Origin: Torpedo marmorata
Taxonomy: Eukaryota
Length of the DNA: 64,000 nt
NCBI GenBank assembly: GCA_977017645.1
Contig: OZ360219.1
Coordinates: 253,952,001-254,016,000 of the forward strand
Reading direction: 5' to 3'
Position numbers and translations under genes: made by a program
The notes under the pieces: model-generated
What the model was told of the DNA's origin: nothing
Seen by the model: the letters and a program-made list of their open reading frames with translations, nothing else
Databases searched by the model: none
Shown here: positions 1,987 to 61,100 of the stretch, piece by piece
How the letters are laid out: every line of letters begins with the position of its first letter
Position numbering within the stretch: the first letter of the stretch is position 1

Positions 1987-2062
1987 CCCTCATGACTTTA
2001 TGGACTTCAATATGATCCCCTCTCAACCTCCTACCCTCTAACGAATACAGGCCTAGTTTTTC

Positions 2063-5014
2063 ATGTCTCTCAAGACAACTGTAATTTGGGAATCTTTAAA
2101 AGCATATTTAAGAGGTTTGATAATAAGTTTTTCGGCAAAAATTAGAAAAGATTATTTGAAAGAAGAAGAAAAATTGGAAGGGGAGATTGAATTTATGGAA
2201 AAAGATTTTCAAAGAAATAAAACAATTTTTAAGAGACAACGTTTAATTGGGAAAAAATTACATTATAATATATTACAAACTCGAAAAATAGAAAAATTAA
2301 TTGGTAGAACAAAGCAAAGATATTATGAATTGGGAGAAAGAGCACATAAAGTTTTAGCATGGCAATTAAAAAAAGAACAAGTTTCTAAAACTATAAATGC
2401 TATAAAGAAAAGTACCGGTGAAATAACTTATAAACCTCAAGAAATAAATAATTCATTTAGAGAGTATTATCAGAATTTATACACTTCGCAGATGAATCAA
2501 GATGTTACAAAAATTGATAATTTTTTATCTAAAATTACATTGCCTAAATTGAATAGTTTTAATAGAGATTTGTTAGATTTACCCATTACAATGAGAGAAG
2601 TAGGTGAAGCTTTATCGTCATTGAAAAGTGGTAAATCTCCTGGTGATGAAGGATTTCCGATAGAGTTTTATAAGAAGTTTAAAGATTTATTGATACCTAT
2701 ATATATGGAAGTGTTGACTCAAATAAAGGAAACTCATTTATTACCGAAAACATTTTTAAATGCTATTATTACAGTTATACCAAAGAAAGATAGAGATGTA
2801 TTAAAAACTGAGTCGTATAGACCTATATCACTGTTGAATGTAGATTATAAAATAATGGCAAAAATTTTGACAAATAGATTAGCTAAGTTCTTACCGTTTT
2901 TAATACATCCAGACCAAGCAGGATTTATTAAAAATAGATATTCGAAGGATAATATAGCAAGATTAATAAGTTTAATTAATTTACAAAAAAGGAAACAGGA
3001 TTTGCCGTTAGTGATAGCATTAGAGGCAGAAAAAGCATTTGATAGATTAGAATGGAATTTTTTATTTAAGGTTTTAGAGAAATATGGATTTGGAAATATT
3101 TTTATAAATTGGATTAAGACTATATATAAGGAACCTACAGCTAGAGTAATTACAAATGGTCAAATATCATCTAAATTTTCCTTGACACGATCAACAAGAC
3201 AAGGATGTCCTTTGTCACCTGCTTTGTTTGTATTGGCAATAGAACCGCTGGCTGAAATGATTAGGAAAGATATTAATATAAATGGGATTAAAGTAGGTGC
3301 AGAAGAACATAAAATTAGTTTGTTTGCAGATGATGTATTAATATATATGACGAAATCTATTGAATCGCTTCAACAATTAGATAAGATATTGAGGGAGTAT
3401 GGTGAGATATCTGGATATAAAATAAACTCGGATAAGAGTGAGATAATGGCTTTATCTCAAGGAGACTATACTAAATGTAAAGAAGTTACAAAATTTAAAT
3501 GGGCTAAAGAAGCAATTAAATATTTGGGAGTTAAAGTAGATACAAAATTGGAAAATTTATATAAATTAAATTATATACCTTTATTTCAGAAAATAAAGAA
3601 AGATTTGGAAAATTGGAAAGATTTACCTATAACTCTAATGGGAAGAGTGAATTGTATTAAAATGAATATTTTTCCAAGAGTTCAATATCTTTTTCAATCT
3701 ATACCTTTTGGTATTCCTCAAAAATTTTTCAAAGATTTAAAAATCATTGTTAGAAAGTTTTGATGGAAAGGAAAATTAGCAAGGGTAAGTATAGATAAAT
3801 TAACTTGGGAATACGAAATGGGTGGATTACAGCTTCCCAATTTTCAATATTACTATAAGGCAGCACAATTAAAATTTATTAATGAATTTTTTGACTTAAC
3901 TAAAAATACTGCTTGGATTAATATAGAATTGAGTAATATAGGGGAAAGATATAAGGAAGATATTATTTATAAATGGAATTCTAAATTATTATTAATTAAA
4001 AAGAAAAAATCACCGATTATTAAACATTTATTGGAAATTTGGACTCAGTTAGATTATGAGATAGGACGAAAAGGATCAATATCTTTAAATATGCCATTAT
4101 ATCAGAATTTATTGTTAGCTTTTTCTATTGATAACCAATTTTTAAAATTATGGTATCAAAAAGGAATTAAGAAGATTAAAGATTGCTTTGAGGCGGGAAG
4201 ATTTGTTACTTTTTCTAGGTTGAAAGAAAAATTTGGAATAATGGATAATACGATTTTGGCTTATTATCAGGTTAAAGGATTTTTAGTTGAGAAATTGGGG
4301 AATCAATTAATATCTCCTAGACAAGATGGATTAGAGTTACTAATTACTAATGGAAATGTTAATAAATTTATATCACAAATGTATAAACTACTTCAGAGAA
4401 AGATGCCTAAAGTAGGATTACATAAATCTAGATTAAATTGGGAGTCAGATTTAAATATTAGTATAGATGAACAACATTGGAAAGAATTATGTAAATTGAG
4501 TATGACTAAAATTATTAATGTTAGATATAGATTAGTACAATATAATTTTTTTCATCAATTATATATAACACCTAAAAAATTAAAGAAATTTAATCCGGCA
4601 TTATCAGATATGTGTTTTAGGTGTAAAGATGAAATAGGTTCTTTTGTACACTGTACATGGTCATGTTTAAAAATTCAAAATTTTTGGTCTAAAGTTAAGG
4701 ATTTTTTAGATAGAATTTTTAATATTACGATTCCAATGGATCCTATGGTATTTTTATTTGGAGATATTAAAAAAATTAGTATTAGAAATGGATTGAATAT
4801 GTATCAAATAGAATTTTTACGAATTGTGTTAGCGATTTCAAAAAAATGTATCGCTATTACTTGGAAATCAGATTTAGATTTGAATTTAGATAGACTACAT
4901 GCAGAATTACGTTCTTGTATACCATTGGAAAAAATTACATATAATTTACGAGATAAATATCATTTCTTTTTGAAAATTTGGAGCCCATATATGAGAATTA
5001 TGGGTATGAATTAA
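2063..5014 (+). pseudogene. L1 ORF2 (RT plus C-terminal CCHC region, no endonuclease) with one in-frame stop
   Basis: ORFs 2063-3763 and 3818-5014 share a frame, separated by TGA at 3761-3763. Motifs YRPISLLNVDYKI, TRQGCPLSP, LFADD, GGLQLPN, CFRC..GSFVHCTWSC. Confidence 0.9.
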
Positions 5015-21080: not shown

Positions 21081-22210
21081 TGAAAACAATGTGAATAAAA
21101 TTGATGCACCATCAATAACTCCAAAGACTAGAAGTTAGACAGGAACTGATAGGCTTTTATTCACATTGGAATGGATGTACACTCCTGGTGGTCGTCTGAG
21201 CTGGAATGGGGAGGGAGCTGTGGCACAATAGCCTTTATTCAGGGGTCTGTGGGAGGAGCCACAGGTACAGCCATTAAGGGGCATGTCCAGACGACCATGA
21301 ACATATCTACATGCATTTACAGTGGTTTATCACACCCTCCATGGACGTGGACCTGCTTAGACCCTCCAGCTTCTCAATGTCTGCTCAAAGTTCCATCATC
21401 TGCAATTCTTGTGTTATTCTAGATACAGACATACTAAATATTTGGTAGCATTGGGATTTATGATACATTCAAAGGCATGTCGGTGCAACATTTGGTGCTG
21501 TCAAATCATTATTTGATAGCTGTATTGCAGAACACAATCCAAAAACATCTATTTTAGGTGTTTGATGGTTATACTGTGGAATGCATAATGGAATATTCCT
21601 TTAAGGCACTTGACAGCGTGTGAAGCACTGTAACTGTGGAATGTGTCTAAATTAAGCAAAGCACTCCTCCATGATTTTGGTTCTCCCTTGAAGGTAGGGC
21701 TTTAATGGCAACAACCCACAGTATTCCTTTCAGAGAGAACGACACATAGTTCAACCCAAGTAATATTTTAAATGAGAACTATGCATAGTTCAAAATGAGA
21801 GAAGCCTTAAATGTTTGCTGCATCAATACTGTATATTTTTTACCAGAATAAAGCTAGTTTATAATATTGAATTAGCTGCAAATTTAATGTTTATAGATGA
21901 CAATGTAATGAGTTATTAAGCAAATTTTGCAGGTGAGGTTTACAGATTTGTTAAAACATTTTACCAATTTAAAACGAGAATTGAATGTGAATTTCTACTA
22001 AATTAACTACACTTTATCATTCAAAATGTTTCAATGATAGTAGGATGACCATTTAAAAAAATGTTTTCTACCTATTTTCCCAAGATCAGGCAACATACAG
22101 TATCTTTGACTCCATCATGCCCCAAATGGATTGTCTATCTTGTAATTCAAAAGCTGGGATGTTCCTGCTTGTGGATACCTCCTTCGAAACCAATGATGCT
22201 GATTTGTTAA

Positions 22211-22951
22211 TGTAGCGACTTCGACCAATAAAATAGTCGCTTGGAGGCTAAGTTAGGCATTTGTCTGCGACGCGTTTTCATTTATTTCCAATACAAGTTC
22301 AGTTGTATTTAAATTCTTTATTTTTAACACACAAAACTTGTAACCATCTTCTTTAATGTTCTATGAAAAGTCTTTAAGTAATGTTCTATGTGGCTGATTC
22401 TTAATAACAAAATATTCATATAAAAGTTAACGTGGCTTAACGATGCTTAACGATCTTTAACGATGTTCAACGATATTCAACATAGTTCAACGATCTTTAA
22501 CGTCTTGATGATGCTTAACTTTCTTTAACGCTGGCTTGACGTGTTTTAAAGGTGTTTTAAACGGTCGACAGAAATTGTCGACACCTAACTTACCCTCCTC
22601 AGATTTCCAACTGACGACTTGCGCGGGGGAACCTATATTTAAATGTACGAAGATCCCACCCGCGCATGCTCCGTTGTGCACGCGCTGGCCCCGGCTCCAA
22701 CCGTTCGCTGCCAGCACTGAGCCAAGTGCACGTGTCGACCCAGTCCATGGCCCATGCGCACTGGCGGACGCGCCAGCCCCGGCTGAAGCCGCTGCCGCTG
22801 AACCAACCGCGCATGCGCCGCCACGTTCCGGCTCCGTAAGCGGTGCCGGCCCTCGCGCATGCGGCCTACGGGAAGAGGCCTACGCACCCTGGGACACCGC
22901 CAGTGCCCGAGGCCAAAACAGCAGGTAAGTACTGAGCCTATGGCTCTTACA
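22211..22951 (-). repeat. 3' LTR of the BEL element
   Basis: 741 bp, near-identical to 27354-28095. Contains a 10-bp T(T/C)AACGATNN tandem array (~22427-22520) and a CpG-rich U3. Confidence 0.95.
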
Positions 22952-23215
22952 CCGGCCCCTAATTATTATAATGAGATGTAACGTCTCTAATAATAATTAC
23001 ATAACTATAATCTATTATATAACAATTAACTACATAACATTCGAACGTTACACAGGTCTCTTTTCATCTTCACTTCCACTCTGAAGTCCGTGTAGTGGGA
23101 AAAGTACAAAACACAAAAATCCAACAAAATAAAGGCAGTTTGTACTTATTAAAGTTCCTCCGTCTACTGTAGAATCCATGAGCCAAACCGTTGACCAGCA
23201 AACCTCAGATCTTCC

Positions 23216-24210
23216 TCAGACAGAATAGACACAGCTTTCCTTTTTGAATTTAACACAAGGCACTTCTTCAACATGTCGTTTCACTTTATTTCTTTTTTCA
23301 GTATTCCACTTCTTTTGTGAGGAATTTAAACTCTTAGAACTGGAATTTGAATATTTATTTGATCCTTTCGATTTTAAACAGGTCTGTTTAACCACTCTGG
23401 TTTCTATTGCCTTTTCCTGCAATTCCAAATCCAATTTTGCAACTTTCAATTCCGTCTCAGTTCTTTCCGAGAAATTAATAATTTGATCTGAAGTCAAAAT
23501 ATCATGTGATACGTTAATATTTCCATTGTCAATCCTGTTGCGACAAACTTGAAATTTTTTAATTTCTTCGTCTTGCTTGTTACATTTCTGCAATGCAATA
23601 TCACATTCTTTCTGCATTGTTAATTGTTTTGTGTTATTAATCAATAACTTGTTCTCTTTCAAAACATTAATCTCTTCCTCCAACCTTTAACATTTTGATA
23701 ATGCTGAATCTCTTTCCTCGATAACTGTATTCATTTCTTCAGCAGTTATTCTTTTCTTCCGTTTTCTGACTTTGCGAGTTTTACTTACAATTAAATCTTT
23801 CTGTTTACTGTTTTCTTGATTATCTAATATTTCCAATTCCCCTTTCAACATTTTGTTCTCTGAATTCAATTGCATTAGATTATCATTCGCATTATTCTTT
23901 ATTCCATCAGCACAATTTTCTGTGTTTTCCAGTTTTACATCACATTGTAATCTTTCTTCGTTAGCTTTGTCTGTTGTAATCTCTGAACTACAAAATCTAC
24001 ATTCAGATTTGTTTTCAGTCACTTGTTTTATTCCTGTATTGGATTCAATTACACATGAATGATCAATAGTATTATTTGCAACATTTTCTAATACTTCACT
24101 TTCATCCATTTCTGACGAAATTAATTCCTTCAATGTTGTTTTAAATACCATTGATTTATTTTCACATTGATCTGTTTTCTTTTTTTCAAAAGTGATTTTC
24201 TTATTCACGG
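23216..24210 (-). pseudogene. MIPOL1: MIPOL1-like coiled-coil segment fused in frame after the BEL protease (one TAA at 23687-23689)
   Basis: RITAEEMNTVIEERDSALSKC*RLEEE matches my recollection of vertebrate MIPOL1 RITAEEMSALIEERDAALSKCKRLEQE. KLDLELQEKAIETRVVKQT resembles KFKLELQEKETEAKIAEKT. Intronless. Not verified by search. Confidence 0.65.
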
Positions 24211-26974
24211 TTTTTTGCTCTTCGCTTAACTCTTCAACTTTCACAACCGAAATTCTATTAATATTTATCGCTAACTGTTCCTGAGCAATATCATTATTTC
24301 TTTCCAGTGGTCCATTGATTGTCCAACCAAACTTGGTTCTAATAGCGTAAGGTCCATTCCTTTTACTCAATATTACTTCTTTCGGTTCCAAAACCTTTGG
24401 CACATCTGAACCAATCAGCATTTCTATCTCAGAATTAATTTCAGGTAAATAAACCTTCCACAGATAAGCTAAATGATGGATATCCCTTTGATGAGGAATA
24501 TTTCCTTCATTCACAGGCATAGTCTTCTGAGTATATACACTTGGAAGATCACAACATTTTTTGTCATCCAATCCAGCAACCTCTAAGCCTGAAACAATGT
24601 TAGTTTCAACAACCCTTTCTTGTCCCATGGTTTTTAACATAATTCTTGATCTTCTTCCTTGAATATTAAGTTTATTCATTAGTCCTTCCGTGCAAAAAGA
24701 AGCAGTGCTGCCTGGATCTAAAAATGCATATGTTTTTACTATTACATCCCCTTTCTTGGCCTTGACTTGTACAGGCACTATTGAAAGTTTGCAGTTATCC
24801 ACACCGGCCCCAGTAAGACCACTTGTCTGAACCGAGGTTATAACATTATTTTCTGTTGTTTCCTTTGTTTCTGTTTGCTCTTTTCCCAATTCCTTGTTTC
24901 TGTTATGGATATGCAAAATTCTAGGATGTTTCAAATTGCATATGTTACAATTAATTCGCTTCTCACAGTTTTTACTGATGTGTCCTTTACACAAACAGCT
25001 AAAACATATTCCATTTTCCTTTAAGAAAGCGATCTTTTCCTTATGTTCCTTCTTTTCCAATCGTAAACACATTTCCAAAGCATGTCCACCTTTACAGAAC
25101 AAACAACTCTTTTCATTAGGCAAACTTTCCTTTACCTTATTTACTTTGTCCTTTTCTTTACTTATAACTTGCACATTAGTAGCAAAAGTACTCCTTTTTA
25201 CTTTCGGACTAGACTGTGTGTTAAACTTCCTTACATCTTTGCCCATTGAATTATCTCTGGTATTTCCATATAGTGGATCTGTTTCAACGTACACCCGTCG
25301 TTCAAGAAAATTTACCAAATCCTTTAAGGTAATTTTTCGACCGTAATCTACTTGTAAATCACAAGCCAAATTTCTCCATCTATCCCATAACTTATAAGGT
25401 AATTTTTCTAAGATGATTCGCATATTACTATGCACATCCAGCTCACGAATATTATCGATTTCTTCCATAGCATTACAACATCCTCTTAAAAACAGAGTAT
25501 ACTCTTGCAGAGCCTTTACATCATTTTGTTTTATTGATGTCCAATTAAGAGCTTTATCCATATAAGCTAAAGCAATTCGATGCTTGTTGCCAAAATATTG
25601 TTCCAATAAAGCCTTAGCTTTGTCTAATCCTCTTTCTGAAGACATTTGTTTACAACTCTTTACCAGTTCTTTTGGATGTCCCTTTGTGAACATTTCCAAA
25701 TAATAAAGACATTCATCACGATCTTGACATTTATCTTCAATATTGCGTTTGAAAGATCTCATAAATGATTGATATTGAAGTGGATCACCATCAAAGGTTT
25801 GTATCTCTTTTTTGGGTAAAGAAGAGAGAGACTGTAACTGAAACAATGATGCAGCAATTTCATTTTGTCTTTCCTTGGACGACAATACATTGCTCTGTTC
25901 ACTGTTTCTTGTTGCATGCAATGTATCTGGAAACCTCACTGGTGTAGTTTCTTCCATACTTCTGATGCTTGACTCATATAACAAAGAAGCTGCTTCGTTC
26001 GACCGAACCCAAGCCGCAGCTTTGCTTTCAGATGTTACTATTGGTACATGTGACTCGATACCAATATGCTCTTGATAGGTTTGTCCTTGTATATGCAAGT
26101 TTTGTATCCTTGGTTCTAAAATATCTATCCTTTTGGTTGGTTTCTTTTCCTGTGACTCCTTTTTTAAATATGACCTTTTATTATCAGACAATTTAGATAA
26201 TTTACTGCTAGCACCAGATACCATTGAGCCTTCTATTGCTTTCTTTTCTGCCTTGGCAATAGCAATGTTTGCTTCTAGCTCCTGCTGTTCTTTTCTCTGC
26301 CTTAGTTGCTCCTTCTCTTGTCTTAGCTGCTCCTTTAGCTGTTTCTCATTTTGTCTTAGCTGCTCCTTTACCTGCTCCCCCTTTTGTCTTAGCTGCTCCT
26401 TTAGCTGCTCCTCCTTTTGTCTTAGCTGCTCCTCCTCTTCTTCCAAAATATATTTATCCTTAAGCGTTTTTTGTTGTGCAAGAAGAGCGGCCAATCGAAC
26501 ATCAATCTTTGTATGTGACGATGCAGAACTTGAAGTACGAGAAACTCTGGAGCTCGAACCAGAACTTCTTTTGCTTCTCCTGCTTTCAGCATTTGAGACA
26601 CTGTCACTTGCTTGTATTTCGTCCTGCAGTTCATATGTTGTCTTCATACTTACCTCTTTATCCAATTCGAATTGTATATCCTTTGCATCTTCAACCACTT
26701 CAATTTCTTCATCATTTGTTGACACAATTTCAGCCATTTCCAAGTTATCTTCTTGTTCATTTAATGAGGCTGCCTCTTCATCCTTTGCCTGCTTCAATCT
26801 TTCGATAAGAACCCTTTTATTTCCTCTTATGTCCTTTTTCATTCGCTTCAATTCTTCTTTAATATCCGCAACCTTCATGTCTTCAATACGTTGGTCCTCA
26901 ACAGCAACATCAGCGGTTGCTGCGTCAGCTGCTGATGTATCAGTAGCTGCTGTATCAGAGGCTGCTGCGGCCAT
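23687..26974 (-). CDS. SAP domain - BEL Gag (coiled coil, DUF1759-like, three Cys/His knuckles) - aspartic protease - coiled-coil fusion protein
   Basis: Open frame 27037-23687, likely ATG at 26974 (AAAATGG). SAP MKVADIKEELKR..DIRGNKRVLIERLK; FDGDPLQYQSFMRSF; CLFCKGGHALEMC, CFSCLCKGHISKNC, CNICNLKHPRILH; AFLDPGSTASF; GPYAIRTKFGWTINGP. The frame continues to 23216 past one TAA. Confidence 0.85.
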   Translation of the reverse strand: MAAAASDTAATDTSAADAATADVAVEDQRIEDMKVADIKEELKRMKKDIRGNKRVLIERLKQAKDEEAASLNEQEDNLEMAEIVSTNDEEIEVVEDAKDIQFELDKEVSMKTTYELQDEIQASDSVSNAESRRSKRSSGSSSRVSRTSSSASSHTKIDVRLAALLAQQKTLKDKYILEEEEEQLRQKEEQLKEQLRQKGEQVKEQLRQNEKQLKEQLRQEKEQLRQRKEQQELEANIAIAKAEKKAIEGSMVSGASSKLSKLSDNKRSYLKKESQEKKPTKRIDILEPRIQNLHIQGQTYQEHIGIESHVPIVTSESKAAAWVRSNEAASLLYESSIRSMEETTPVRFPDTLHATRNSEQSNVLSSKERQNEIAASLFQLQSLSSLPKKEIQTFDGDPLQYQSFMRSFKRNIEDKCQDRDECLYYLEMFTKGHPKELVKSCKQMSSERGLDKAKALLEQYFGNKHRIALAYMDKALNWTSIKQNDVKALQEYTLFLRGCCNAMEEIDNIRELDVHSNMRIILEKLPYKLWDRWRNLACDLQVDYGRKITLKDLVNFLERRVYVETDPLYGNTRDNSMGKDVRKFNTQSSPKVKRSTFATNVQVISKEKDKVNKVKESLPNEKSCLFCKGGHALEMCLRLEKKEHKEKIAFLKENGICFSCLCKGHISKNCEKRINCNICNLKHPRILHIHNRNKELGKEQTETKETTENNVITSVQTSGLTGAGVDNCKLSIVPVQVKAKKGDVIVKTYAFLDPGSTASFCTEGLMNKLNIQGRRSRIMLKTMGQERVVETNIVSGLEVAGLDDKKCCDLPSVYTQKTMPVNEGNIPHQRDIHHLAYLWKVYLPEINSEIEMLIGSDVPKVLEPKEVILSKRNGPYAIRTKFGWTINGPLERNNDIAQEQLAININRISVVKVEELSEEQKTVNKKITFEKKKTDQCENKSMVFKTTLKELISSEMDESEVLENVANNTIDHSCVIESNTGIKQVTENKSECRFCSSEITTDKANEERLQCDVKLENTENCADGIKNNANDNLMQLNSENKMLKGELEILDNQENSKQKDLIVSKTRKVRKRKKRITAEEMNTVIEERDSALSKC
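26285..26436 (-). repeat. 33-bp coding tandem repeat (EQLRQKEEQLK-like, 4-5 copies) in the Gag coiled coil
   Basis: Repeated ttagctgctcc units. Confidence 0.8.
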
Positions 26975-27353
26975 TTTACTCGTCTTGTTCCTCTTTCCTT
27001 CAAGCATACACAATACCAGCCAAACAACAGTCCCCAATGGACCAGCGGCAGCAATTCCAATCTGTGTTCTTACTTACTAAAGATACACAGAAGGAGTCCA
27101 CACACTTATGCCAACCACTTCAAATGACTGTAATGTGCTGCAATCCACAACGAGTTTTTTTATCTTCTTTCCTTCTATTTTCTGTTCCAAACAGCCAGCT
27201 CTTTATTGACTATGTAGATTGCGGTGACTTCGATCCAACGTTGGTCACCTGGAGGCTAAGTGTGGTCCTTATGTATCTGGAAACCTCACTGACCCTCCTA
27301 ACATCTCCTTCCTATCCTATTTTCCGTTTCAACAAAAATTTCTGTCGACTTAA

Positions 27354-28095
27354 TGTAGCGACTTCGACCAATAAAAATAGTCGCTTGGAGGCTAAGTTAG
27401 GCATTTGTCTGCGACGCGTTTTCATTTATTTCCAATACAAGTTCAGTTGTATTTAAATTCTTTATTTTTAACACACAAAACTTGTAACCATCTTCTTTAA
27501 TGTTCTATGAAAAGTCTTTAAGTAATGTTCTATGTGGCTGATTCTTAATAACAAAATATTCATATAAAAGTTAACGTGGCTTAACGATGCTTAACGATCT
27601 TTAACGATGTTCAACGATATTCAACATAGTTCAACGATCTTTAACGTCTTGATGATGCTTAACTTTCTTTAACGCTGGCTTGACGTGTTTTAAAGGTGTT
27701 TTAAACGGTCGACAGAAATTGTCGACACCTAACTTACCCTCCTCAGATTTCCAACTGACGACTCGCGCGGGGGAACCTATATTTAAATGTACGAAGATCC
27801 CACCCGCGCATGCTCCGTTGTGCACGCGCTGGCCCCGGCTCCAACCGTTCGCTGCCAGCACTGAGCCAAGTGCACGTGTCGACCCAGTCCATGGCCCATG
27901 CGCACTGGCGGACGCGCCAGCCCCGGCTGAAGCCGCTGCCGCTGAACCAACCGCGCATGCGCCGCCACGTTCCGGCTCCGTAAGCGGTGCCGGCCCTCGC
28001 GCATGTGGCCTACGGGAAGAGGCCTACGCACCCTGGGACACCGCCAGTGCCCGAGGCCAAAACAGCAGGTAAGTACTGAGCCTATGGCTCTTACA
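27354..28095 (-). repeat. 5' LTR of the BEL element
   Basis: 742 bp. On the minus strand: TATA-like TTTAAATATAG (~27777-27787), Inr-like TCAGTT (27753-27758), splice donor GTAAGT (27737). Confidence 0.95.
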
Positions 28096-33610: not shown

Positions 33611-34654
33611 TTAAATTCCTACCTTGATTATTTGAGAACAGAAAGAGTGGTAGAGATTGAAAGAGAGAAAATGCATGAGGAAGGAAATTTCAAGATATAG
33701 TTCTAAGTAGAGTGTTATGGACCATGACTGACCATTTGGACTGCGGACGGTCAGCAGGAAGGATGAAGTCTTTTGGAGTATACACTGGGGCCAGGTACTG
33801 AAAGAGTTAACTTCCCCAGGACTTGGTGTACCCAGACAGAGAGAGAGACAAGCTGTAGACAAAGATACATTGTTGCACTTTTGGTGTACCCAGACAGAGA
33901 GAGACCAGAGAGAGAGAGAGACAGACTGTGGACAAGATACATTTGTTGCACTTTTGCAAAAAGCAGGTGTAGATCTCTGCAAGAAGCAGACAGTTGTAAG
34001 TTGCAAAGGCTAGAGGACACAGCCAAATCCAGGCTTGTGCAAGTCAGAGAAAAGACTGGCAGGATAGCACATGGCCTCCTGTCTCAGAGAAATTCTGAGA
34101 AAAAGCAACTTCTGTGGAGAACAGGCGTGAGATCAGCGAGACTAGCTGTGAGATTGAAGCATACGCCTAAATCAGTGGTATACTGATCTGAACTTGCAAT
34201 CCTTATGAACATACCAGAAGGGGACGTCATCAGAGAAGAAAACAAGTATTTGTAAGCATAAACAGTCATTGTCTCTCTCCAACGTTCATTCAGAAGTACT
34301 TCTACCAGACACGGAGCTGAATTTGAAGCCTGAACTTAGAGAGTGAATTTTGTAGACTGTATTGTCTTTTTTTTTGACTGACTTGTTTTTTTATGACTGA
34401 CCTGGGGTTTTTTTTTTGGGGAAAGTTTTTCCATTTTTACATAAGGGTTGGGCACAGACTGTAATGGTCTGGGTTTTACACACACACACACACACACACA
34501 CACCTTTTAGATAAGAATAGTGTTTATAGACGTTTATAGTGGGGTTAATTGTTGTGAAATTATATGTTTTATTGTCTTTAATAAATATAAATTTCAATTT
34601 TACCCCTTTTGCATTGCGTCTTCTGTCATTGCTGGTTTGATTTTGTAACAAAAT

Positions 34655-34672
34655 TGGGGGCTCGTCCGGGAT
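34655..34672 (+). promoter_or_regulatory. Primer-binding site complementary to tRNA-Pro
   Basis: TGGGGGCTCGTCCGGGAT, the canonical tRNA-Pro PBS. Complementarity appears to extend through TTGAA. Confidence 0.92.
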
Positions 34673-34781
34673 TTGAATCAAAATCCATCTTGGTAATTGA
34701 AGGAATCCCAGTTTGGTTTAAGGCATTCCTTTTGTAAAGCTAATTAAAAGCTTGTGTGTGTGTAACGAAAAACCAACAACA

Positions 34782-37700
34782 ATGGATGTAGAACAATTTT
34801 TGGAATCACCTGAACCTGATACTTTAAAAAAGGCGAAAAAGGAACAGTTAGTGGCTATAGCAACAGAGTTGGGCATTGCTTCTGTAAAACCATCTATGAA
34901 AAAGGCAGAGATTGGGAGAAAAATTGTCAAATACTATATAAAAGAAAATAATTTGAGGAGAGCGTGTTAGAGCAGTTTCCCAAGGGTAAACCTTCTGAAA
35001 ACATACAATTGGAAATAAAGAAATTGGAATTGGAACAAAAGAACAGAGAATTGGAACAAAGGAAATTAGAATTGGAGGTAGACAGGGAACAAAAGAAATT
35101 AGAATTGGAATTGGAACAAAGGAAATTAGAATTGGAGGTAGCCAGGGAACAGAAGAGATTAGACTTGGAGAACGAGGAGAAAAATAGGATATATATGCTG
35201 GAAAAGAAAAAGTTGGAAAATGAGAGGAGACAAGAAGAGCGCCAAGATCAAATTCGTCATCCTGCTGAGGGGTTTTTGGCTAGTAGAGAAGTTAGGTTGG
35301 TTCCTCCATTTGAGGAGGCAGAAATAGATAAGTACTTCCAACATTTTGAGAAAGTGGCTGTGAAATTAAAATGGCCACAAGACCAATGGTCTCTTATGTT
35401 ACAAAGTGTAATTAAAGGAAAAGCTCAGCAAGCTTATTGTACTCTTACCATGGAGCAAGCTGCTGATTATGAAAAGGTGAAAAAGGCTATACTCCAGGCT
35501 TATGAGTTAGTTCCAGAGGCTTATAGACAGAAGTTTAGAAATTTAAAAAGATCAGCAACCCAATCTTATACAGAGTTTGCCTATGAAAAAGTTGTGTGTT
35601 TTGACAGGTGGTGCACATCTAAGGCAGTAAACAATGATTACAATCAATTGATAGAATTGATAATAATCGAGGAGATAAAAAGGTGTGTTCCTGAGGATAT
35701 TAAGGCATACTTAGATGAAAAGGAGGTGAAAACTTGGCAAGATTCAGCTAAGTTAGCAGATGAATATGCTTTAACCCACAAGCCTAAGTGGACGTCAGGT
35801 AGAATTTTCCAAAAGGTCACTGTGGATAATCAGAAGCAAGTAGAAAGTAAATTTGGAAGTGGTGTTAAGGAAAGGGATGAAGGAAAGTGGAAAAGGGAAA
35901 ACAATTCGGGTCCCATTTGCCACTACTGTAGGAAGGCTGGTCATATGCTAGCAAGCTGTCCAGTGTTGAAAAAGAAGAGAGAAAAGGATGCAACACCTAA
36001 TGCTTGTATTCAGAGTGAGAAGATGTATAACACCCAGGAAGGAGATAAATTTACTGACAAAGTTAAAGATGTATTTAAACCTTTTGTGACTGATGGTTTT
36101 GTTTCTGTTAAGGCAGGATCAAAACAAGTTCCAGTGAAAATCTTGAGAGATACTGGAGCTGCTCAGTCACTTGTGTTAGATAGTGTCTTGGAATTTTGTG
36201 AAGCTACTGACACTGGTGACATAAATTTAATTAAAGCAATTGGTGGTGAGGTTGAGTCCATTCCTTTGCACAAAATAGTATTGGACTCAGACTTGGTGGA
36301 AGGACCAGTTATAATAGGAGTGAAATCAGAGTTGCCAGTAGAAGGAGTCTCACTGTTGTTAGGCAATGACTTGGCCAAGGGTAAAGTAGTTCCTGCAGTG
36401 CGAATGACCACTAAGCCAGTCATTGATAAGTCAGAGAAAGACTCTGATATTTATCCGGCATGTGCCATAACCAGGGCCATGTCTAAGAAAAATGTCACTG
36501 TAGAGAAGGCAGTGGAAAATAACTTGGTAAAAGAAAAAGACACTGATAATCAAGAAAACCTGGAAAAGGTTGAGCAATCTCCTATGTTACACCCATCCAC
36601 TGATAAGACACCTAAAGGCACAGATTTGTCACTATCCCGACAGGAGTTAATAGCAAGGCAAAAGGACGATCCTGATCTTGTTGAGGTGAGGGATAAGGTT
36701 CTCTCTGAAGAGGAGATTAAAAAGGTGCCAGTAGGTTATTATGAAAAAGATGGGGTGTTGATGAGAAAGTGGAGACCACGTGATGTTCCTGCCAATGAAG
36801 AATGGGCAGTAGTGCAGCAGGTTGTGATCCCTAAAGTATATAGGGATGCAATAATAACTTTGGCTCATAGTACACCCTTAGGTGGTCATCTTGGGGTGAA
36901 GAAAACTATACGGAAGATAATGAAACAATTTTATTGGCCCAGTTTAAGAAGGGAGGTTGTAAGCTTTTGCCGGGCCTGTCACACTTGTCAGGTGGTGGGT
37001 AAACCTAATCAGGGTCCCCCGGTGGCACCCTTGCAACCTATCCCTGCTTTCAGTGAGCCTTTCTCGAGAGTAATTGTGGACTGTGTTGGCCCATTGCCCA
37101 AAACCAAAGCGGGGAATGAATATTTGTTAACAATTATGTGTGCAGCCACCAGATTTCCAGAGGCCATTCCTCTGAGAAACATAAAAGCAAAGTCAATTGT
37201 AAAGGCTATGGTAAAGTTTTTCACCTTGGTAGGTTTGCCAAGGGAAATTCAATCAGATCAGGGCAGTAATTTCATGTCAGGCGTTTTCCAACAAGTGGTT
37301 GATGGACTTGGAGTTAAACAGATTGTATCCTCTGCGTACCATCCAGAAAGTCAAGGGGCCTTGGAGAGGTTCCATTCGACTTTGAAAACCATGATTAGAA
37401 CCTATTGTTGTGAAAAGGAAAAGGATTGGGATGAGGGGGTTCATTTGTTGTTATTTGCAGCGAGGGAGTCTGTCCAAGACTCACTTGGTTTTAGTCCATT
37501 CGAGTTAGTTTTCGGACATGAGGTGAGAGGTCCTTTAAGATTATTAAAAGAACAGTGGATTAATCATGATGTGCATTTAAATCTGTTAGATTATGTTTCC
37601 AAATTTAAGGATTGATTACATAGGGCTTGTGAGATGGCAAAGGAGAATTTAAAGGCCACTCAACAGAGAATGAAGGTTTGGTATGATCGAAAGGCGAAGA

Positions 37701-39420
37701 TGAGAACTTTTAAACCTGGTGAGAACGTATTAGTTCTGTTTCCCATCCATTCAAATCCTCTTAGGGCTAGATTTTCAGGACCCTATAGAGTTAAGTCAAA
37801 AATTAATGATGTCACCTATGTCATAGAAACACCTAATCGCAGACGAGACACACAGGTCTGTCATGTGAATATGATTAAGCCATATTTTGAACAGGTGCCA
37901 CACAAAGGGACTGAAAATTTACCAGAGGTACTGGTTATTGATCAGGGTAAGGAGGAGACAGATGAAACCAGTTTCAGAGAGGGTCATGGGACACAGAAAT
38001 TAATAAGCCCGAGGTTAGAAAATTCCATGATTTTGCGCAATCTGGAGACAAAGTTGGCTCATCTGAAAACTTCAGAAAAGGAAGAGATGAGTCAGTTATT
38101 TTTAAAATTTATAAGTTTATTTCCTGATGTGCCTCAGAAAATTTCCATCGCTTATCATGATGTGGATGTAGGAGATGCAAGACCGATAAAACAGCATCCC
38201 TATCGAATCAATGCGGAAAAGTGCAAACTGGTAGATCAGGAAATTGACTACATGGTAAAGAACAATATCATTCGAAAGTCTACTTCCAATTGGAGTTCCC
38301 CTTGTGCCGAAGCCTGATGGAACGGTTAGGTTTTGTACTGATTATAGGAAAGTAAATGCTGTAACCAAGACAGATGCTTATCCTATTCCGAGAATAGACG
38401 ATTGTATAGACAAGGTGGGGAAGGCCAAATTTCTTACAAAAATTGACTTATTAAAAGGATACTGGTGTGTTCCTTTAACAAAAAGGGCTAGGGAGATTTC
38501 TGTATTCGTAACACCTTCTGGGCTGTATGCGTATAATGTTATGCCTTTTGGTATGAAGAATGCTCCAGGAACATTTCAGAGAATGATTAATTCAGTAATT
38601 CAGGGTTTGAAAAACACAGGTGCTTACATTGATGATTTAATTGTAAGTAGTGAGACCTGGGAAGAGCATGTCTTTGAGCTAAAACAATTGTTCGAACGAC
38701 TGTCCAAAGCAAAACTCACAGTTAATTTAAGTAAAAGTGAGTTTGGACATTTATCTGGGTTATGTAGTAGGACAGGGGCAGTTGGCGCCAGTAGAGGCAA
38801 AGGTTGTCGCTATTTCCGAGTTCCCTGTTCCAACTGGTAAGAAAACTCTGAGGAGGTTCCTGGGAATGATTGGCTACTACCGCAAGTTCTGTAAAAACTT
38901 TGCTGATCTTGCGCTCCCTCTCACAAATTTGCTTAGAAAGAAAGAAAAATTTGTATGGTCAACAGGTTGTCAGGAAGCATTTGTCAAATTGAAAGCCATG
39001 TTATGCCACCAACCTGTGCTTAAATCACCTAATTTAGAACAGCCGTTTTCTTTAGCCGTGGATGCCAGTGATGAAGCTGTGGGTGCGGTGCTGTTACAGA
39101 AGAAGAACGAAGAGGACATTGACCATCCGGTATCCTACTTCTCGAAGAAGTTCAATGATCATCAAAGGAATTATTCAACTATAGAAAAAGAGTTGTTGGC
39201 TCTTGTGTTGGCTCTACAACACTTTGATGTGTATATCTGTACAGCTCAAAAACCACTCATAGTATATACTGACCATAATCCATTGGTTTTCCTTTGTAAA
39301 ATGAAAAATAAGAATCGACGGTTGTTGAATTGGAGTCTAATTTTGCAAGAATATAATTTGGTAATCACACATATAAAAGGGAAAGATAATGTAATTGCTG
39401 ATTGTCTTTCTAGATGTTAA
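34782..39420 (+). pseudogene. Gmr1-like polyprotein: SCAN-related capsid, CCHC, protease, integrase, RT, RNase H; four disruptions
   Basis: AYELVPEAYRQKFRNL..LADEY; CHYCRKAGHMLASC; LRDTGAAQS; AHS..GHLG..CHTC, IVDCVGPLP, SDQGSNF, GALERFH, FSGPY; TDYRKVN, YIDD; VDASDEAVG, EKELLA, ADCLSR. Frameshift ~34940, stop 37613-37615, deletions ~38305 and ~38750. Confidence 0.92.
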
Positions 39421-40549
39421 ACTTTATCAATGAAAATAGTTCATATTTTGTATTTGTGGATGAACATTGTAGATTTTGTTTATATTCTGACACCTCAATT
39501 ACTTTCCTAAATTTTGTTCTTGCAGACCAAAATTTCCTTTGTGGGTGGGAGGTGTTATGGACCATGACTGACCATTTGGACTGCGGACGGTCAGCAGGAA
39601 GGATGAAGTCTTTTGGAGTATACACTGGGGCCAGGTACTGAAAGAGTTAACTTCCCCAGGACTTGGTGTACCCAGACAGAGAGAGAGACAAGCTGTGGAC
39701 AAAGATACATTGTTGCACTTTTGGTGTACCCAGACAGAGAGAGACCAGAGAGAGAGAGAGAGATAGACTGTGGACAAGATACATTTGTTGCACTTTTGCA
39801 AAAAGCAGGTGTAGATCTCTGCAAGAAGCAGACAGTTGTAAGTTGCAAAGGCTAGAGGACACAGCCAAATCCAGGCTTGTGCAAGTCAGAGAAAAGACTG
39901 GCAGGATAGCACATGGCCTCCTGTCTCAGAGAAATTCTGAGAAAAAGCAACTTCTGTGGAGAACAGGCGTGAGATCAGCGAGACTAGCTGTGAGATTGAA
40001 GCATACGCCTAAATCAGTGGTATACTGATCTGAACTTGCAATCCTTATGAACATACCAGAAGGGGACGTCATCAGAGAAGAAAGCAAGTATTTGTAAGCA
40101 TAAACAGTCATTGTCTTTCTCCAACGTTCTTTCAGAAGTACTTCTACCAGACACAGAGCTGAATTTGAAGCCTGAACTTAGAGAGTGAATTTTGTAGACT
40201 GTATTATCTTTTTTTTTGACTGACTTGTTTTTTTATGACTGACCTGGGGTTTTTTTTTGGGGGAAAGTTTTTCCATTTTTACATAAGGGTTGGGCACAGA
40301 CTGTAATGGTCTGGGCTTTACACACACACACCTTTTAGATAAGAATAGTGTTTATAGATGTTTATAGTGGGGTTAATTGTTGTGAAATTATATGTTTAAT
40401 TGTGTTTAATAAATATAAATTTCAATTTTACCCCTTTTGCATTGCGTCTTCTGTCGTTGCTGGTTTGATTTTGTAACAAAAGACAGACACCATGGTGCGG
40501 AGATGGAATTCTGTGAGGCATAGATGTCCAGAATTGGGACAACAATATG

Positions 40550-47319: not shown

Positions 47320-48418
47320 TCAGAATCAGAATCAGAATCAGAATTTATTGTCATGAACAAGTCATGAAATTCGGTGTTTTGCGGAAGCATCATAGTGCAA
47401 ACATTCATATTATAAAAAAATATATAAATAATAGTGCATGAAAAGTAAGGCAGTGTCTTTGGTTCATTGATTATTCAGGAATCTGATGGCAGCGGGGAAG
47501 AAGCTGTCCTTGTGCCGTTGAGTGCTTGACTTTAGACTCCTGTACCTTTTTCCCAGAGTGAAGAGGGCATGGCCGGGGTGGTGGGGGTCTTTGATGATTG
47601 AGGCTGCTTTTTTAAGACACCGCCTCATGTAGATGTCCTCGATGGAGTGAAGTCTGGTGCCTGTGATGTCACAGGCCAAGTTAACAACCCTCTGGAGTTT
47701 ATTCTTGTCCTGAGAGTTGGCGCCTCCATACCAGGCAGTGATGCAACCAGCTAGAATGCTCTCCATGGTACACCTGTAGAAGTTTACGAGAGTCTTCGGT
47801 GACATACCGAATCTCCTCAGACTCCTCACAAAGTATAGCCGCTGGTGAGCCTTATTTGTGATTGCATCAACGTGGAGGTTCCAGGACAGATTCGCGGAGA
47901 TGTTGACACCCAGGAATTTGAAGTTCTTGACCCTCTCCACTACTGAGCCCTCGATGAGGACTGGGTCATGTTCCCCTGACTTCCTCCTGAAGTCCACAAT
48001 CATCTCCTTGGTTTTGCTGACGTTGAGCTCAAGGTTGTTGTCGTTACACCATTCAACGAGCTTATCTATCTCCCTCCTGTACGCTTCCTCATTGCCGTTT
48101 GTGATTCTGCCGACAACTGTGGTGTCATCGGCAAACTTGTATATGGCATTGGAATTGTGCCTGGCCACACAGTCATGGGTGTATAATGAGTAGAGCATTG
48201 GGCTAAGCACGCATCCTTGGGGTGCGTCTGTGTTGATAATCAGTGAGGAGGAGACATTGTTTCCAATTCGTACTGACTGTGGTCTTCTGATGAGAAAGTC
48301 AAGGATCCAGTTGCAGAGTGGGGTACAGAGGCCTAGAGTTTGTAGCTTCTTGATCAGCACTGAGGGAATAATGGTATTGAAGGCCGAGCTGTAGTCAATG
48401 AAGAGCAGCCGTATGTAT
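47320..48418 (-). mobile_element. Rex1/Babar-type LINE, 5'-truncated, with (TTCTGA)n tail
   Basis: ORF 47464-48360 (298 aa) [29 protein letters not shown]. Highly similar to 705-1986. Tail repeats at 47320-47345. Confidence 0.9.
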
Positions 48419-49019
48419 ACGGTGATGAAGATGATAAAGTAAAGCTTTCAAAACAGGAAGTTGTTCTGTAGAGAAACATAAAAACTGCAAATCTTGAGTG
48501 AACAATGAGAAGCTGGAAGGAGTCCATGGTCAGGCAGCATCCATGGGCCAGTCCTTCTGACTTTAGTCTCATTCTGAGATAAGATAAGACTTTTTCTTGG
48601 AGTAGTTCCAAAACCTGCTGCCACAGCAGACTGAGAAGATGTTACTGAAGGGAGACCATGAGTGTCATGTGTGAGATGGACCATTGGGTGTCTCGTAAGG
48701 ACAGTTGGGTCCAGTGCTCATCATGGCTAAAGTCAGTTGTGGAAGGATCTGAATTATGTCATTTGTTTGCAGGGACCATGTTTTTGAAAGCACTTCTGCC
48801 TTAGTGAGAGATCTAGAAGCCAATCACACTCTGGGGTTCACTGTTCTCACCTGAGCAGGCCAATGTTCAGAATGGACTTTGCAAATGGTCATTTTTAATT
48901 TCCATCAGTCCTGAAGTGAATTATACAAGTTCAATCAAAGGGAGATTGGGAGTTTATAGAGCAACATGTCAGGAAACAGAAAGTACCTTTCAGAAATGTC
49001 TGATAAACTAATGTCCTTG

Positions 49020-58182: not shown

Positions 58183-61100
58183 TGTTACAAACTCAATCCA
58201 GCAACGACAGAAGACGCAATGCAAAAGGGGTAAAATTGAAATTTATATTTATTAAAGACAATTAAATATATCATTTCTTAACAATTAACCCCACTATAAA
58301 CGTCTATAATCACTATTCTTATCTAACGTTGTGTGTGTGTGTATGTGTAGCCCAGGCCATTACAATCTGTGCCCAACCCTCAAGAAAAAAAAAATAGAAA
58401 GCCTTCCCCAAAACCCCAGGTCAGTCATAAAAATAAGTCAGTCCCAAAAATACAGTCCACAAAAAATCACTATATTCAGGGTCCAAATTCAGCTCTGTGC
58501 GCTGGCACGAAGGACTTCTTAATGGACATTGGAGAGAGAGACATTGACTGTTTAAGCTTACAAATCTTGGTCTGCTATATCCTTCCGATCACTTTCCCTT
58601 TTGGTAGGTGCATGAGGGTTGCTGTTCCAAATCAGTATACCACTGATAGAGGCTTGTATTTGGATCTCACAGCCTGTCTCGCTGATCTCACGGCTGTTCT
58701 CCACGAAAGTTGCTTTAAATCAGTCTTTTACTGAAAAAGGAGGCCATGTGCTCTTCTCCACAGCCTTTCTATCTGGAATGCACGAGCCTCTGGTTTTGCT
58801 GTTGTTGCTCCAGCCTTTTGCAACTCCAAACTGAATGCTTTTTGCAGAGGTTTGCACCTGCTTTTGCAAAAGTGCAACAAAGTATCTTTTCCACAGCCTG
58901 TCTCTCTCTCTTTCTGAGCACAGCCAGTCCTGGGCAAGTTAACTCTTTTAGTACCTGGTCCCAGTGTGTACTCAAAAAACTTCATCCTTCCTGCTTACTG
59001 TCCGCAGTCCAAATGGTCAGTCATGGTCCATAACACCTCCCACCCACAAAGAAAATGTTTGTCTGCAAGAACAAAATTTTAGAAATTAATTGAGGTGTCA
59101 CAATGTAAACAAAATCCATAATGTTCATCCAAAAACACAAAAATATGAACTATTTTCATTTAGAAAGTTTAGCATCTGGAAAGACAATCAGCAATTACAT
59201 TATCTTTCCCTTTTATATGTTATCATTAAATCATATTCTTGCAAAATTAGACTCCAATTCAACAACTGTCTATTCTTTTTTTTCATTTTACAAAGAAAAA
59301 CCAATGGATTATGGTCAGTATACACTTGAGTGGTTTTTAAGCTGTACAGATATGCACATCAAAGTGCTGTAGAGCCAACACAAGAGCTAACAACTCTTTT
59401 TCTATGTTTGGTTGAATAATTTTTTTGATGATCATTGAACTTCTTCGAGAAGTAGGATGGTCAATGTCCTCTTCGTTCCTTCTCTGTAACAGCACCGCAC
59501 CCACAGCTTCATCGCAGGCATCCACGGCTAAAGAAAATGGCTTTTCTAAATCAGGTGACTGAAGCACAGGTTGGTGGCATAAAATTGCTTTCAATTTGAC
59601 AAATGCTTCCTGACAACCTGTTGACCATACAAATTTTTCTCCCGTTCTAAGCAAATTTGTGAGAGGGAGCGCAAGATCTGCAAAGTTTTTACAGAACTTG
59701 CGGTAGTAGCCAATCATTCCCAGGAACCTCCTCAGAGTTTTCTTACCAGTTGGAACAGGGAACTCAGAAATAGTCACAACCTTGGCCAATACTGGCACCA
59801 ACAGCCCCTGTCCTACTACATAACCCAGATACATAACAGTTGCATGTCCAAACTCACTTTTACTAAAATTAACTGTGAGATTTGCTTTTGACAGTCGTTC
59901 AAACAATTGTTTTAACTCAAAGACATGCTCTTCCCAGGTGTCACTACTTACTCATCAATGTAAGCACCTGTGTTTTTCAACCCTTGAATTACTGAATTAA
60001 TCATTCTCTGAAATGTTCCTGGAGCATTCTTCATACCAAAAGGCAAAACATTATACTCATACAGCCCAAAAGGTGTTACGAATGCAGAAATCTCCCTAGC
60101 CCTTTTTGTCAAAGGAACACACCAGTATCCTTTCAATAAGTCAATTTTTGTAAGAACTTTAGCCTTCCCCACCTTGTCTATACAATCGTCTATTCTAGGA
60201 ATAGGATAAGCATCTGTCTTTGTTACAGCATTTACTTTCCTATAATCAGTGCAAAACCTAACCGTTCCATCAGGCTTAGGCACTAAAACACAAGGGGAAC
60301 TCCAATTGGAAGTAGACTTTCGAATGCTACTGTTCTTTACCATGTAGTCAATTTCCTGATCTACCACTTTGCACTTTTCCGCATTGATTTGATAGGGATG
60401 CTTTTTATCGGTCTTGCATCTCCTACATCCACATCATGATAGGTGATGGAAATTTTTTGAGGCACATTGGGAAATAAATTCATAAATTTTAAAAATAACT
60501 GACTCATCTCTTCCTTTTTGGAAGATTTGAGATTTGCCAACTTTATCTCCAGATTGCGAAAAATCATGGAATTTTCTAACCTCGGGCTTATCAATTTCTG
60601 TGTCCCATGACCCTCTCTGAAACTGGTTTTATCTGTCTCCTCCTTACTCTGGTCGATACCCAGCACCTCTGCTAAATGTTCAGTCTCTTTGTGCGGCACC
60701 TGTTCAAAATATGACTTAATCATATTCACATGACAGACCTGTGTGTCTAGTCCGCAATTAGGTGTTTCTATGACATCAGTGACCTCATTAATTTTAGACT
60801 TAACTCTATAGGGTCCTGAAAATCTAGCCCCAAGAGGATTTGAATGTGTGGGAAACAGAACTAATACGTTCTCACTAGGTTTAACAGTTCTCATCTTGGC
60901 CTTTCGATCATACCAAACCTTTATTCTCTGTTGAGTGGCCTTTAAAGTCTCCTTTGCCATCTCACAAGCTTTATGCAACCGTATCCTTAAATTTGGAAAC
61001 ATAATCCAACAAATTTAAATGCACATCACTATTGATCCACTGTTCTTTTAATAACCTTAAAGACCTCTCACCTCATGTCTGAAAACTAACTCGAATGGAC

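Follow-up and report, generated by a model that had tools for sequence, protein, structure and literature searches.

How does the Gag protein of a retrotransposon come to begin with a host-type DNA-binding domain, and what might the element do with it? This question is raised by a minus-strand open reading frame of 1095 amino acids in a 64,000-nt stretch of the 6.2 Gb genome of Torpedo marmorata (hereafter the window). The frame starts at position 26974, runs downward through Gag and protease, and opens with a peptide that fits the SAP consensus, as the initial annotation had stated. That annotation had also proposed that the domain was captured from SLTM or a related gene of the SAFB family, and that it either tethers Gag to AT-rich chromatin or acts as a decoy.

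The window element and its SAP domain

The reading frame belongs to a young non-autonomous BEL/Pao retrotransposon of 5.9 kb (Table 1), with LTRs identical at 739/741 positions and a 5-bp target-site duplication at its borders. Its BEL/Pao features are the TG..CA ends of the LTRs, the short duplication, a DUF1759 Gag core, zinc knuckles and a protease. RT, Pao RNase H (PF05380) and integrase, which occur in this order in the relatives L086, L064 and L060, are absent from the window copy; a foreign tail of about 1050 nt follows the protease, and the Gag frame stops inside this tail at 23687-23689. Contigs of RNA run X1, which carry no strand or level information, cover the element too, and no RNA holder is listed for it.

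Table 1. Positions of the features of the window element (numbering of the 64,000-nt window).
Feature	Position	Strand	Basis or remark
5′ LTR (TGT...ACA)	27354..28095	-	739/741 identical to 3′ LTR, one gap
3′ LTR	22211..22951	-	compared with 5′ LTR
Target-site duplication GTTAA	28096..28100	.	second copy at 22206-22210
Primer-site position	27337..27349	-	13 nt complementary to 27708-27720 within the LTR
Remnant of SLTM 5′UTR, up to the captured start codon	26975..27005	-	comparison with host UTR
SLTM-derived coding piece: Ala-rich leader, SAP, five exon 2 codons	26774..26974	-
Former SLTM exon 1/2 junction within the coding piece	~26789/26788	-
SAP domain, Pfam PF02037, aa 30-63	26786..26887	-	Pfam match and fold model
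Acidic linker, shorter in the window subfamily	26606..26773	-
Ancestral BEL Gag N-region: DSVS motif, Ser-rich stretch, coiled coil	26240..26605	-	similar motif in SAP-less BELs
DUF1759 Gag core	25373..25795	-	Pfam, aa 394-534
Cys/His zinc-knuckle region, approximate	24911..25105	-	read from translation
Aspartic protease with DPGS, approximate	24280..24790	-	translation; DUF1758/Asp_protease matches on relative L097
Foreign tail in place of RT, RNase H and integrase	23166..24214	-	boundaries set against pol-bearing L086
Polypurine tract	22952..22960	-

Pfam recognises the SAP domain at 28.3 bits (cut-off 23.9, E 1.3e-6). An AlphaFold model adopts the helix-extended loop-helix fold with a pLDDT of 88 when built from a 17-row alignment, which included SLTM rows and so favours a SAP fold; the model from the single sequence is one long uninformative helix. 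The best Foldseek matches of the SAP model are SAP-containing proteins (rmsd 0.5-1.0 A), with E values of only 0.27-2 because the model has 51 residues. Unlike the proteins of the SAFB family, which combine SAP, RRM and ER repeats, the window Gag carries the SAP alone. Word-indexed protein searches with the window SAP gave no match and an Atlas search with residues 1-130 gave no usable one, since the window copy is too diverged.

The BEL family of the window element is large. A DNA search yielded 599 first-look candidates, among which 40 of the 40 scored matches were 96-100% identical. In a PF02037 search of the genome, all 150 scored matches lay above the cut-off, among 29,045 loose candidates that are not to be read as copy numbers; nine of the ten best loci are Gag relatives and one is an hnRNPU-like host gene.

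BEL/Pao LTR retrotransposons typically possess a tRNA primer-binding site. In this family, the corresponding position pairs with the LTR itself: in the window, the bases directly after the 5′ LTR are complementary to an internal segment of that LTR. Both sides of the pair covary across five subfamilies (the window; L086, L063, L078, L183 and others), and the best match has p <= 0.03 in 17/20 copies. The pair looks like self-priming of the Tf1 type, here in a BEL element; in the literature searched, self-priming was mentioned for chromoviruses and not for BEL elements.

Other elements share the window. Two related LTR elements, 91-95% alike, lie at 33700-40500 (plus strand) and 58200-64000 (minus strand), and contain a SCAN domain, a zinc knuckle, an integrase and an RNase H. 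In the plus-strand copy the integrase comes before the RNase H, an order that we take to be Gmr1-like. Two RT-element copies (683-1930 and 47427-48447) show an ALKBH8_N match after the RT, a pairing also present in L081, and AT-rich, LINE-like RT fragments occupy 2057-5014.

Origin of the captured segment

A HMMER search with the window SAP returned 28 matches. Six of these are short N-termini of the SLTM type, and three of the six bear the name SLTM in their sources. With one of these N-termini as query, a subfamily (E, near-host) with the same Gag and a near-SLTM SAP was retrieved from the genome; with the N-terminus of an E copy as query, the 120 matches listed of 405 were all SLTM, ray SLTMs being on top. 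The host SLTM gene itself lies at G000:C68, and its best exon is 96% identical to Narcine.

At the DNA level, the E copy L021 matches 38 nt of the 5′UTR and exon 1 of host SLTM with 89.9% identity over 189 nt; in this copy, exon 1 is followed directly by the initial 16 nt of exon 2. The intervening 1184-nt intron, confirmed in the host gene by a GT..AG joint of this length in run X1, is missing, and the source was therefore a spliced mRNA. The 5′ breakpoint is identical in 4/5 SAP-intact E copies checked, the fifth having a small deletion there; at the switch points, the sister family F is too diverged to display the pre-capture sequence. With columns as the yardstick, near-host copies have the host residue at 41/42 codons. 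They differ from the host UTR at 3/38 nt, and window-type copies at 11/31 nt. Among copies selected by their linker and not by their SAP, 37/43 match the host at 100 or more of 126 nt.

These comparisons identify host SLTM as the donor, and the resemblance of the Gag N-terminus to SLTM thus holds in the DNA. By DNA sequence as well as by the codons used, every subfamily is nearer to SLTM than to SAFB or to the hnRNPU-like gene; of 111 nt compared, the window copy shares 72 with SLTM, 55 with SAFB and 48 with the hnRNPU-like gene. As a candidate donor, SAFB was ruled out by the DNA and codon comparison, made with exon 1 of one of two SAFB-like genes; a grouping of the derived SAPs with SAFB on the SAP DNA tree gave a p-AU of 0.046. 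These two genes lie about 1 Mb apart on G000:C54, near 17.15 and 18.17-18.21 Mb, and exon 1 was found for one of them.

The flanks of the domain fared unequally. The Ala-rich leader does descend from SLTM, and is expanded in the window copy. The stretch 'DNLE...VST', which had been equated with an SLTM 'DNIELTVST', was misassigned: ray SLTM reads DNIQLSET there. In near-host copies an NLE stretch is found about 30 residues after the SAP, and it stands near the SAP in the window type because a deletion shortened the gap.

The captured sequence also dates the event. The motif 'RCIT' is present in five skate/ray-type rows, and in 0/7 shark/chimaera and 0/4 bony-vertebrate rows. Since its Cys is found in rays only, the capture took place after the split between rays and sharks. 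The longer Ala leader is common to Narcine and the window host, which suggests that the capture probably occurred within electric rays.

Distribution and history of the capture

Forty 10-kb elements can be ranged in a graded series, E, EB, B and finally the window type A, with C/D in addition. The SAP co-occurs with RT, Pao RNase H and integrase in single elements (e.g. L086 and L064). Pol-bearing SAP copies are found in E, A and C/D, and no RT was seen in the B copies examined; autonomous relatives, to which the initial annotation had pointed for comparison, do carry the SAP.

Among 40 DUF1759 loci picked regardless of the SAP, 19 constitute family F, which has a different N-terminus without a match to SLTM. 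An SLTM N-terminus was matched by 0/25 metagenome BEL loci, about nine of which reach into the Gag N-terminal region. The domain, absent from sister family F and from 25/25 of these outgroup loci, is very probably not ancestral to the BEL lineage. With 20 metagenome BELs as the root of a 42-row RT tree, from which three rows with an RT far from Gag and rows below 140 aa were left out, F is sister to one SAP clade (support 98/87), and the tree shows a single gain of the SAP. One change also suffices for the tree of Gag proteins (56 rows; 10 excluded for shortness), its basal support being weaker. One metagenome contig, L139, has a BEL RT that falls inside the SAP clade, is 75% identical and lacks its 5′ region.

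The SAP DNA tree is a ladder that starts from SLTM with E and passes through EB to B, A and C/D. The near-host group also lies at the base of the Gag DNA tree, and B contains the window-type copies in the Gag tree as well as in the SAP tree. Gag and pol histories differ, which indicates that recombination is common.

On amino acids, the phylogeny is less telling. The protein-only tree of 42 columns gives no resolution and draws the derived copies toward generic SAP outgroups, and the C/D amino acids are as near to an hnRNPU-like SAP (17.6/37) as to SLTM (17.4/37). An ancestral transposon SAP, or one from another host gene that merely resembles SLTM, could be read into such data, yet DNA, synonymous codons and 5′UTR point to SLTM in every subfamily, the SLTM exon junction is present, and sister family and outgroups are without SAP. 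We regard an origin outside SLTM as extremely improbable; it is refuted for the near-host and B copies, within the latter of which window-type copies nest.

A more intricate history can also be drawn, in which an older capture took in SLTM exons 1-4, and a second copying from SLTM mRNA, limited to the first 205 nt, followed later in the near-host subfamily. It is compatible with any function of the SAP, and we hold it as tentative and somewhat unlikely. A profile of SLTM exons 2-4 matches C-type linkers with a best E of 1e-4, 0/30 control frames falling below E 2, and near-host linkers can be aligned to exons 2 and 3 without a shift of register, the identity being about 45% (per-copy p 0.002-0.39, the copies not being independent). 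Moreover, synonymous change in the SAP exceeds that in the rest of Gag solely in pairs with the near-host group (p 0.006-0.04). However, correction for GC and CpG lowers this excess to p 0.016-0.18, CpG/GC drift accounting for part of it. In addition, the intermediates form a stepwise ladder, the near-host group is basal on the Gag DNA tree, and a genome search with exons 2-4 gave only three host exons among 107 candidates. From the linker matches, the acidic linker may possibly, on a weak signal, be a decayed trace of exons 2-4.

SLTM is not the only mRNA that this family has sampled. The foreign tail contains a MIPOL1-like fragment (Atlas MIPOL1 clusters at 0.96, on the relative L079); the host MIPOL1 locus was not found in a DNA search, in which 30/30 loci were element copies, and PDB gave no match. 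The two host-derived modules that had been proposed are therefore present in the window copy, the second on Atlas evidence only, and the count falls short for the family, which has further captures. In L252, L253, L256, L265, L068 and L067, a chimera stands in place of pol. It joins the C-terminus of TACC with pieces of a class I tRNA synthetase and a class V aminotransferase, and a remnant of Pao RNase H lies between them. The family often transduces mRNAs, in the way that excerpts of PMC5131818 describe. Since it takes up many mRNA pieces, capture by itself implies no use; the SLTM piece is special because it begins Gag in frame and has persisted in pol-bearing copies.

Constraint on the SAP and its possible role

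We defined a SAP core of 14 columns from 62 unrelated SAP repeats, which were retrieved with the window SAP and may favour its scores. Changes affect 1/14 core versus 13/23 other columns in B (p 0.004), 3/14 versus 14/23 in the window type (p 0.04) and 4/14 versus 16/23 in C/D (p 0.02); the core is avoided in EB, B, A and C/D alike (p 0.004-0.04; p 0.001-0.007 for class-changing changes). The residue is the same in 17/17 rows at nine columns, among them Gly, Lys, Arg and four hydrophobics, and the window type retains a net positive charge in its SAP. As changes avoid the core, the fold has been kept and the identity to SLTM, which drifts from 41/42 to 22-26/42 residues, has not. The invariant Gly is presumably the same residue as G29 of SAF-A. 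In the SAF-A SAP, this Gly is needed for DNA binding, as reported for G29A in excerpts of PMC9114059.

Rates of change give a more mixed picture. SAP dN/dS is 0.3-0.55 in most pairs versus 0.6-1.5 in the linker and middle region, a difference that partly reflects raised dS and is drawn from 28-41 codons, EB being represented by three copies. Between near-host and B copies, SAP dN is 0.23 versus about 0.15 for the rest of Gag, so that the amino acids of the SAP do not change more slowly. On the window-type branch they change faster (p 0.004), and the window-type SAP (Pfam 28 bits) has lost one hydrophobic core residue; the window type may thus be relaxing.

A sub-lineage (L104, L106, L122, L134, L136, L137 and L246-L265) has lost the SAP through a precise in-frame deletion of 147 nt and retains the SLTM UTR and start codon; six SAP-deleted copies share one junction. 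The deletion junction has 145 exact matches versus 19 for the intact near-host (E) junction, such numbers depending on age. RT is present in 1/20 SAP-deleted copies and in another one (L170) from a separate set. Since these copies are mostly without RT, most could have used helper Gag. The amplification of this mostly pol-less lineage counts against the importance of the SAP. In addition, the 200-nt insertion flanks show no AT enrichment, with 0.584 (n=61) against a background of 0.573 (p 0.69) and against 0.550 (n=15) for the SAP-less F (p 0.26).

Altogether, the Gag N-terminus is the 5′ end of a spliced SLTM mRNA, likely acquired by template switching, and we think it somewhat probable that the SAP works as a generic DNA or chromatin anchor. 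The piece is made of 38 nt of UTR, the start codon, the whole of exon 1 with the SAP and 16 nt of exon 2, and would have been joined to Gag by template switching during reverse transcription. By a putative DNA binding, the SAP would then anchor Gag or the pre-integration complex on DNA or chromatin. The window copy is a late, diverged, pol-less descendant that would be mobilised in trans. In excerpts of PMC6021111, p12 of MLV Gag tethers the pre-integration complex to chromatin, a precedent for the proposed anchor. The same excerpts describe a chromatin-binding sequence in foamy-virus Gag. We propose both as functional analogues of a Gag-borne tethering module, with the difference that they are short viral nucleosome-binding peptides of tested function, whereas the SAP is a folded host domain with a putative tethering role.

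Several of the observations above count against an anchor: the flanks without AT bias, the amplified SAP-deleted lineage, a SAP dN that is not below the rest of Gag, the faster change and lost core residue of the window type, and the many other captures. In a rival reading, the element gained a strong host 5′UTR and start codon, the SAP riding along under a weak constraint because a misfolded N-terminus would harm Gag. The SAP-deleted copies, with their 145 exact matches, kept the UTR and the ATG, SAP dN equals the linker level, the flanks lack an AT bias, and many other mRNAs were captured in the family. However, each of the four derived subfamilies retains an in-frame SAP whose Gly-Lys and Arg-Leu surface residues never vary, while the linker accepts indels freely; the deleted copies could rely on helper Gag; and the captured UTR itself has drifted by 16-37%. 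We judge a mere passenger unlikely.

As a decoy, the Gag SAP would occupy chromatin sites or partners in competition with SLTM/SAFB and thereby weaken repression by the SAFB family. According to excerpts of PMC10901741, SAFB1, SAFB2 and SLTM bind and suppress L1, and LTR elements in mouse and fly, and excerpts of PMC9114059 describe isolated SAF-A domain mutants as dominant negatives. Derived copies also converge on SAFB-like loop residues without using SAFB codons (same-codon share 0.19 versus 0.63 for SLTM). However, the repression rests on binding to A-rich transposon RNA in the former source (PMC10901741, excerpts), and the capture included no RRM and no ER-repeat region. Furthermore, SLTM identity has drifted while generic SAP positions were kept, which is the opposite of what mimicry predicts. 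We consider a decoy quite improbable and, of the two proposed functions, the pattern of residues favours the tether, since the generic core is kept while SLTM identity is lost. A bolder scenario, to which we give only a small chance, would combine these elements: a self-priming BEL took a DNA-binding module, a start codon and a UTR from a repressor family, re-copied them more than once, and now docks on SAFB-occupied chromatin or blunts SAFB repression. If true, successive stages in the retuning of a host domain for a parasite would be preserved side by side in the genome.

Compared with the SLTM/SAFB family, the SAP, the leader, the start codon and part of the 5′UTR descend from SLTM, whereas RRM and ER repeats are missing and the protein is a Gag and not an SLTM paralogue. 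Retroviral oncogene transduction also captures spliced host sequence and fuses it to gag. Such v-onc fusions usually come after gag and cripple the virus, whereas the SLTM piece precedes gag and is fixed in a germline-replicating lineage. In the LTR-mediated retroposition of cellular mRNA of Tan et al. 2016 (PMC5131818, excerpts), partial intron-less host mRNAs likewise lie within LTR elements, multi-gene chimeras occur, and a BEL element borders one mosquito case; in the present family, the MIPOL1-like, TACC and tRNA-synthetase inserts are of the same kind. In the published cases, internal ORFs give way to the retrocopy and the resulting chimeras are non-autonomous, whereas Gag here owes its start codon and first domain to the SLTM piece, in frame and in pol-bearing copies, with a core conserved across subfamilies. 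As an accessory module, SAP is known from other transposon classes, namely Zisupton DNA transposons and the Chlamys Penelope-like element, for which excerpts of PMC8557442 name no host donor; in the BEL family, the donor gene, the exon junction and the lineage have all been established. SAP in other transposons (PMC8557442, in part) and LTR capture of mRNA are thus already known. In the literature searched, which covered few subscription journals and neither Repbase nor Dfam, no BEL Gag was described as carrying a piece of SLTM or a SAP.

The capture of host domains by transposons is usually inferred from distant similarity. In the present case, a single genome holds the donor exon, the lost intron, both breakpoints, and descendants from 98% down to about 55% amino-acid identity, and this ladder of copies shows which residues of a stolen domain a retrotransposon retains. 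As the donor family is reported to repress retrotransposons, tether and decoy are directly testable with isolated domains. More generally, mRNA capture by LTR elements can give pol-bearing elements a lasting domain, and not just dead chimeras.
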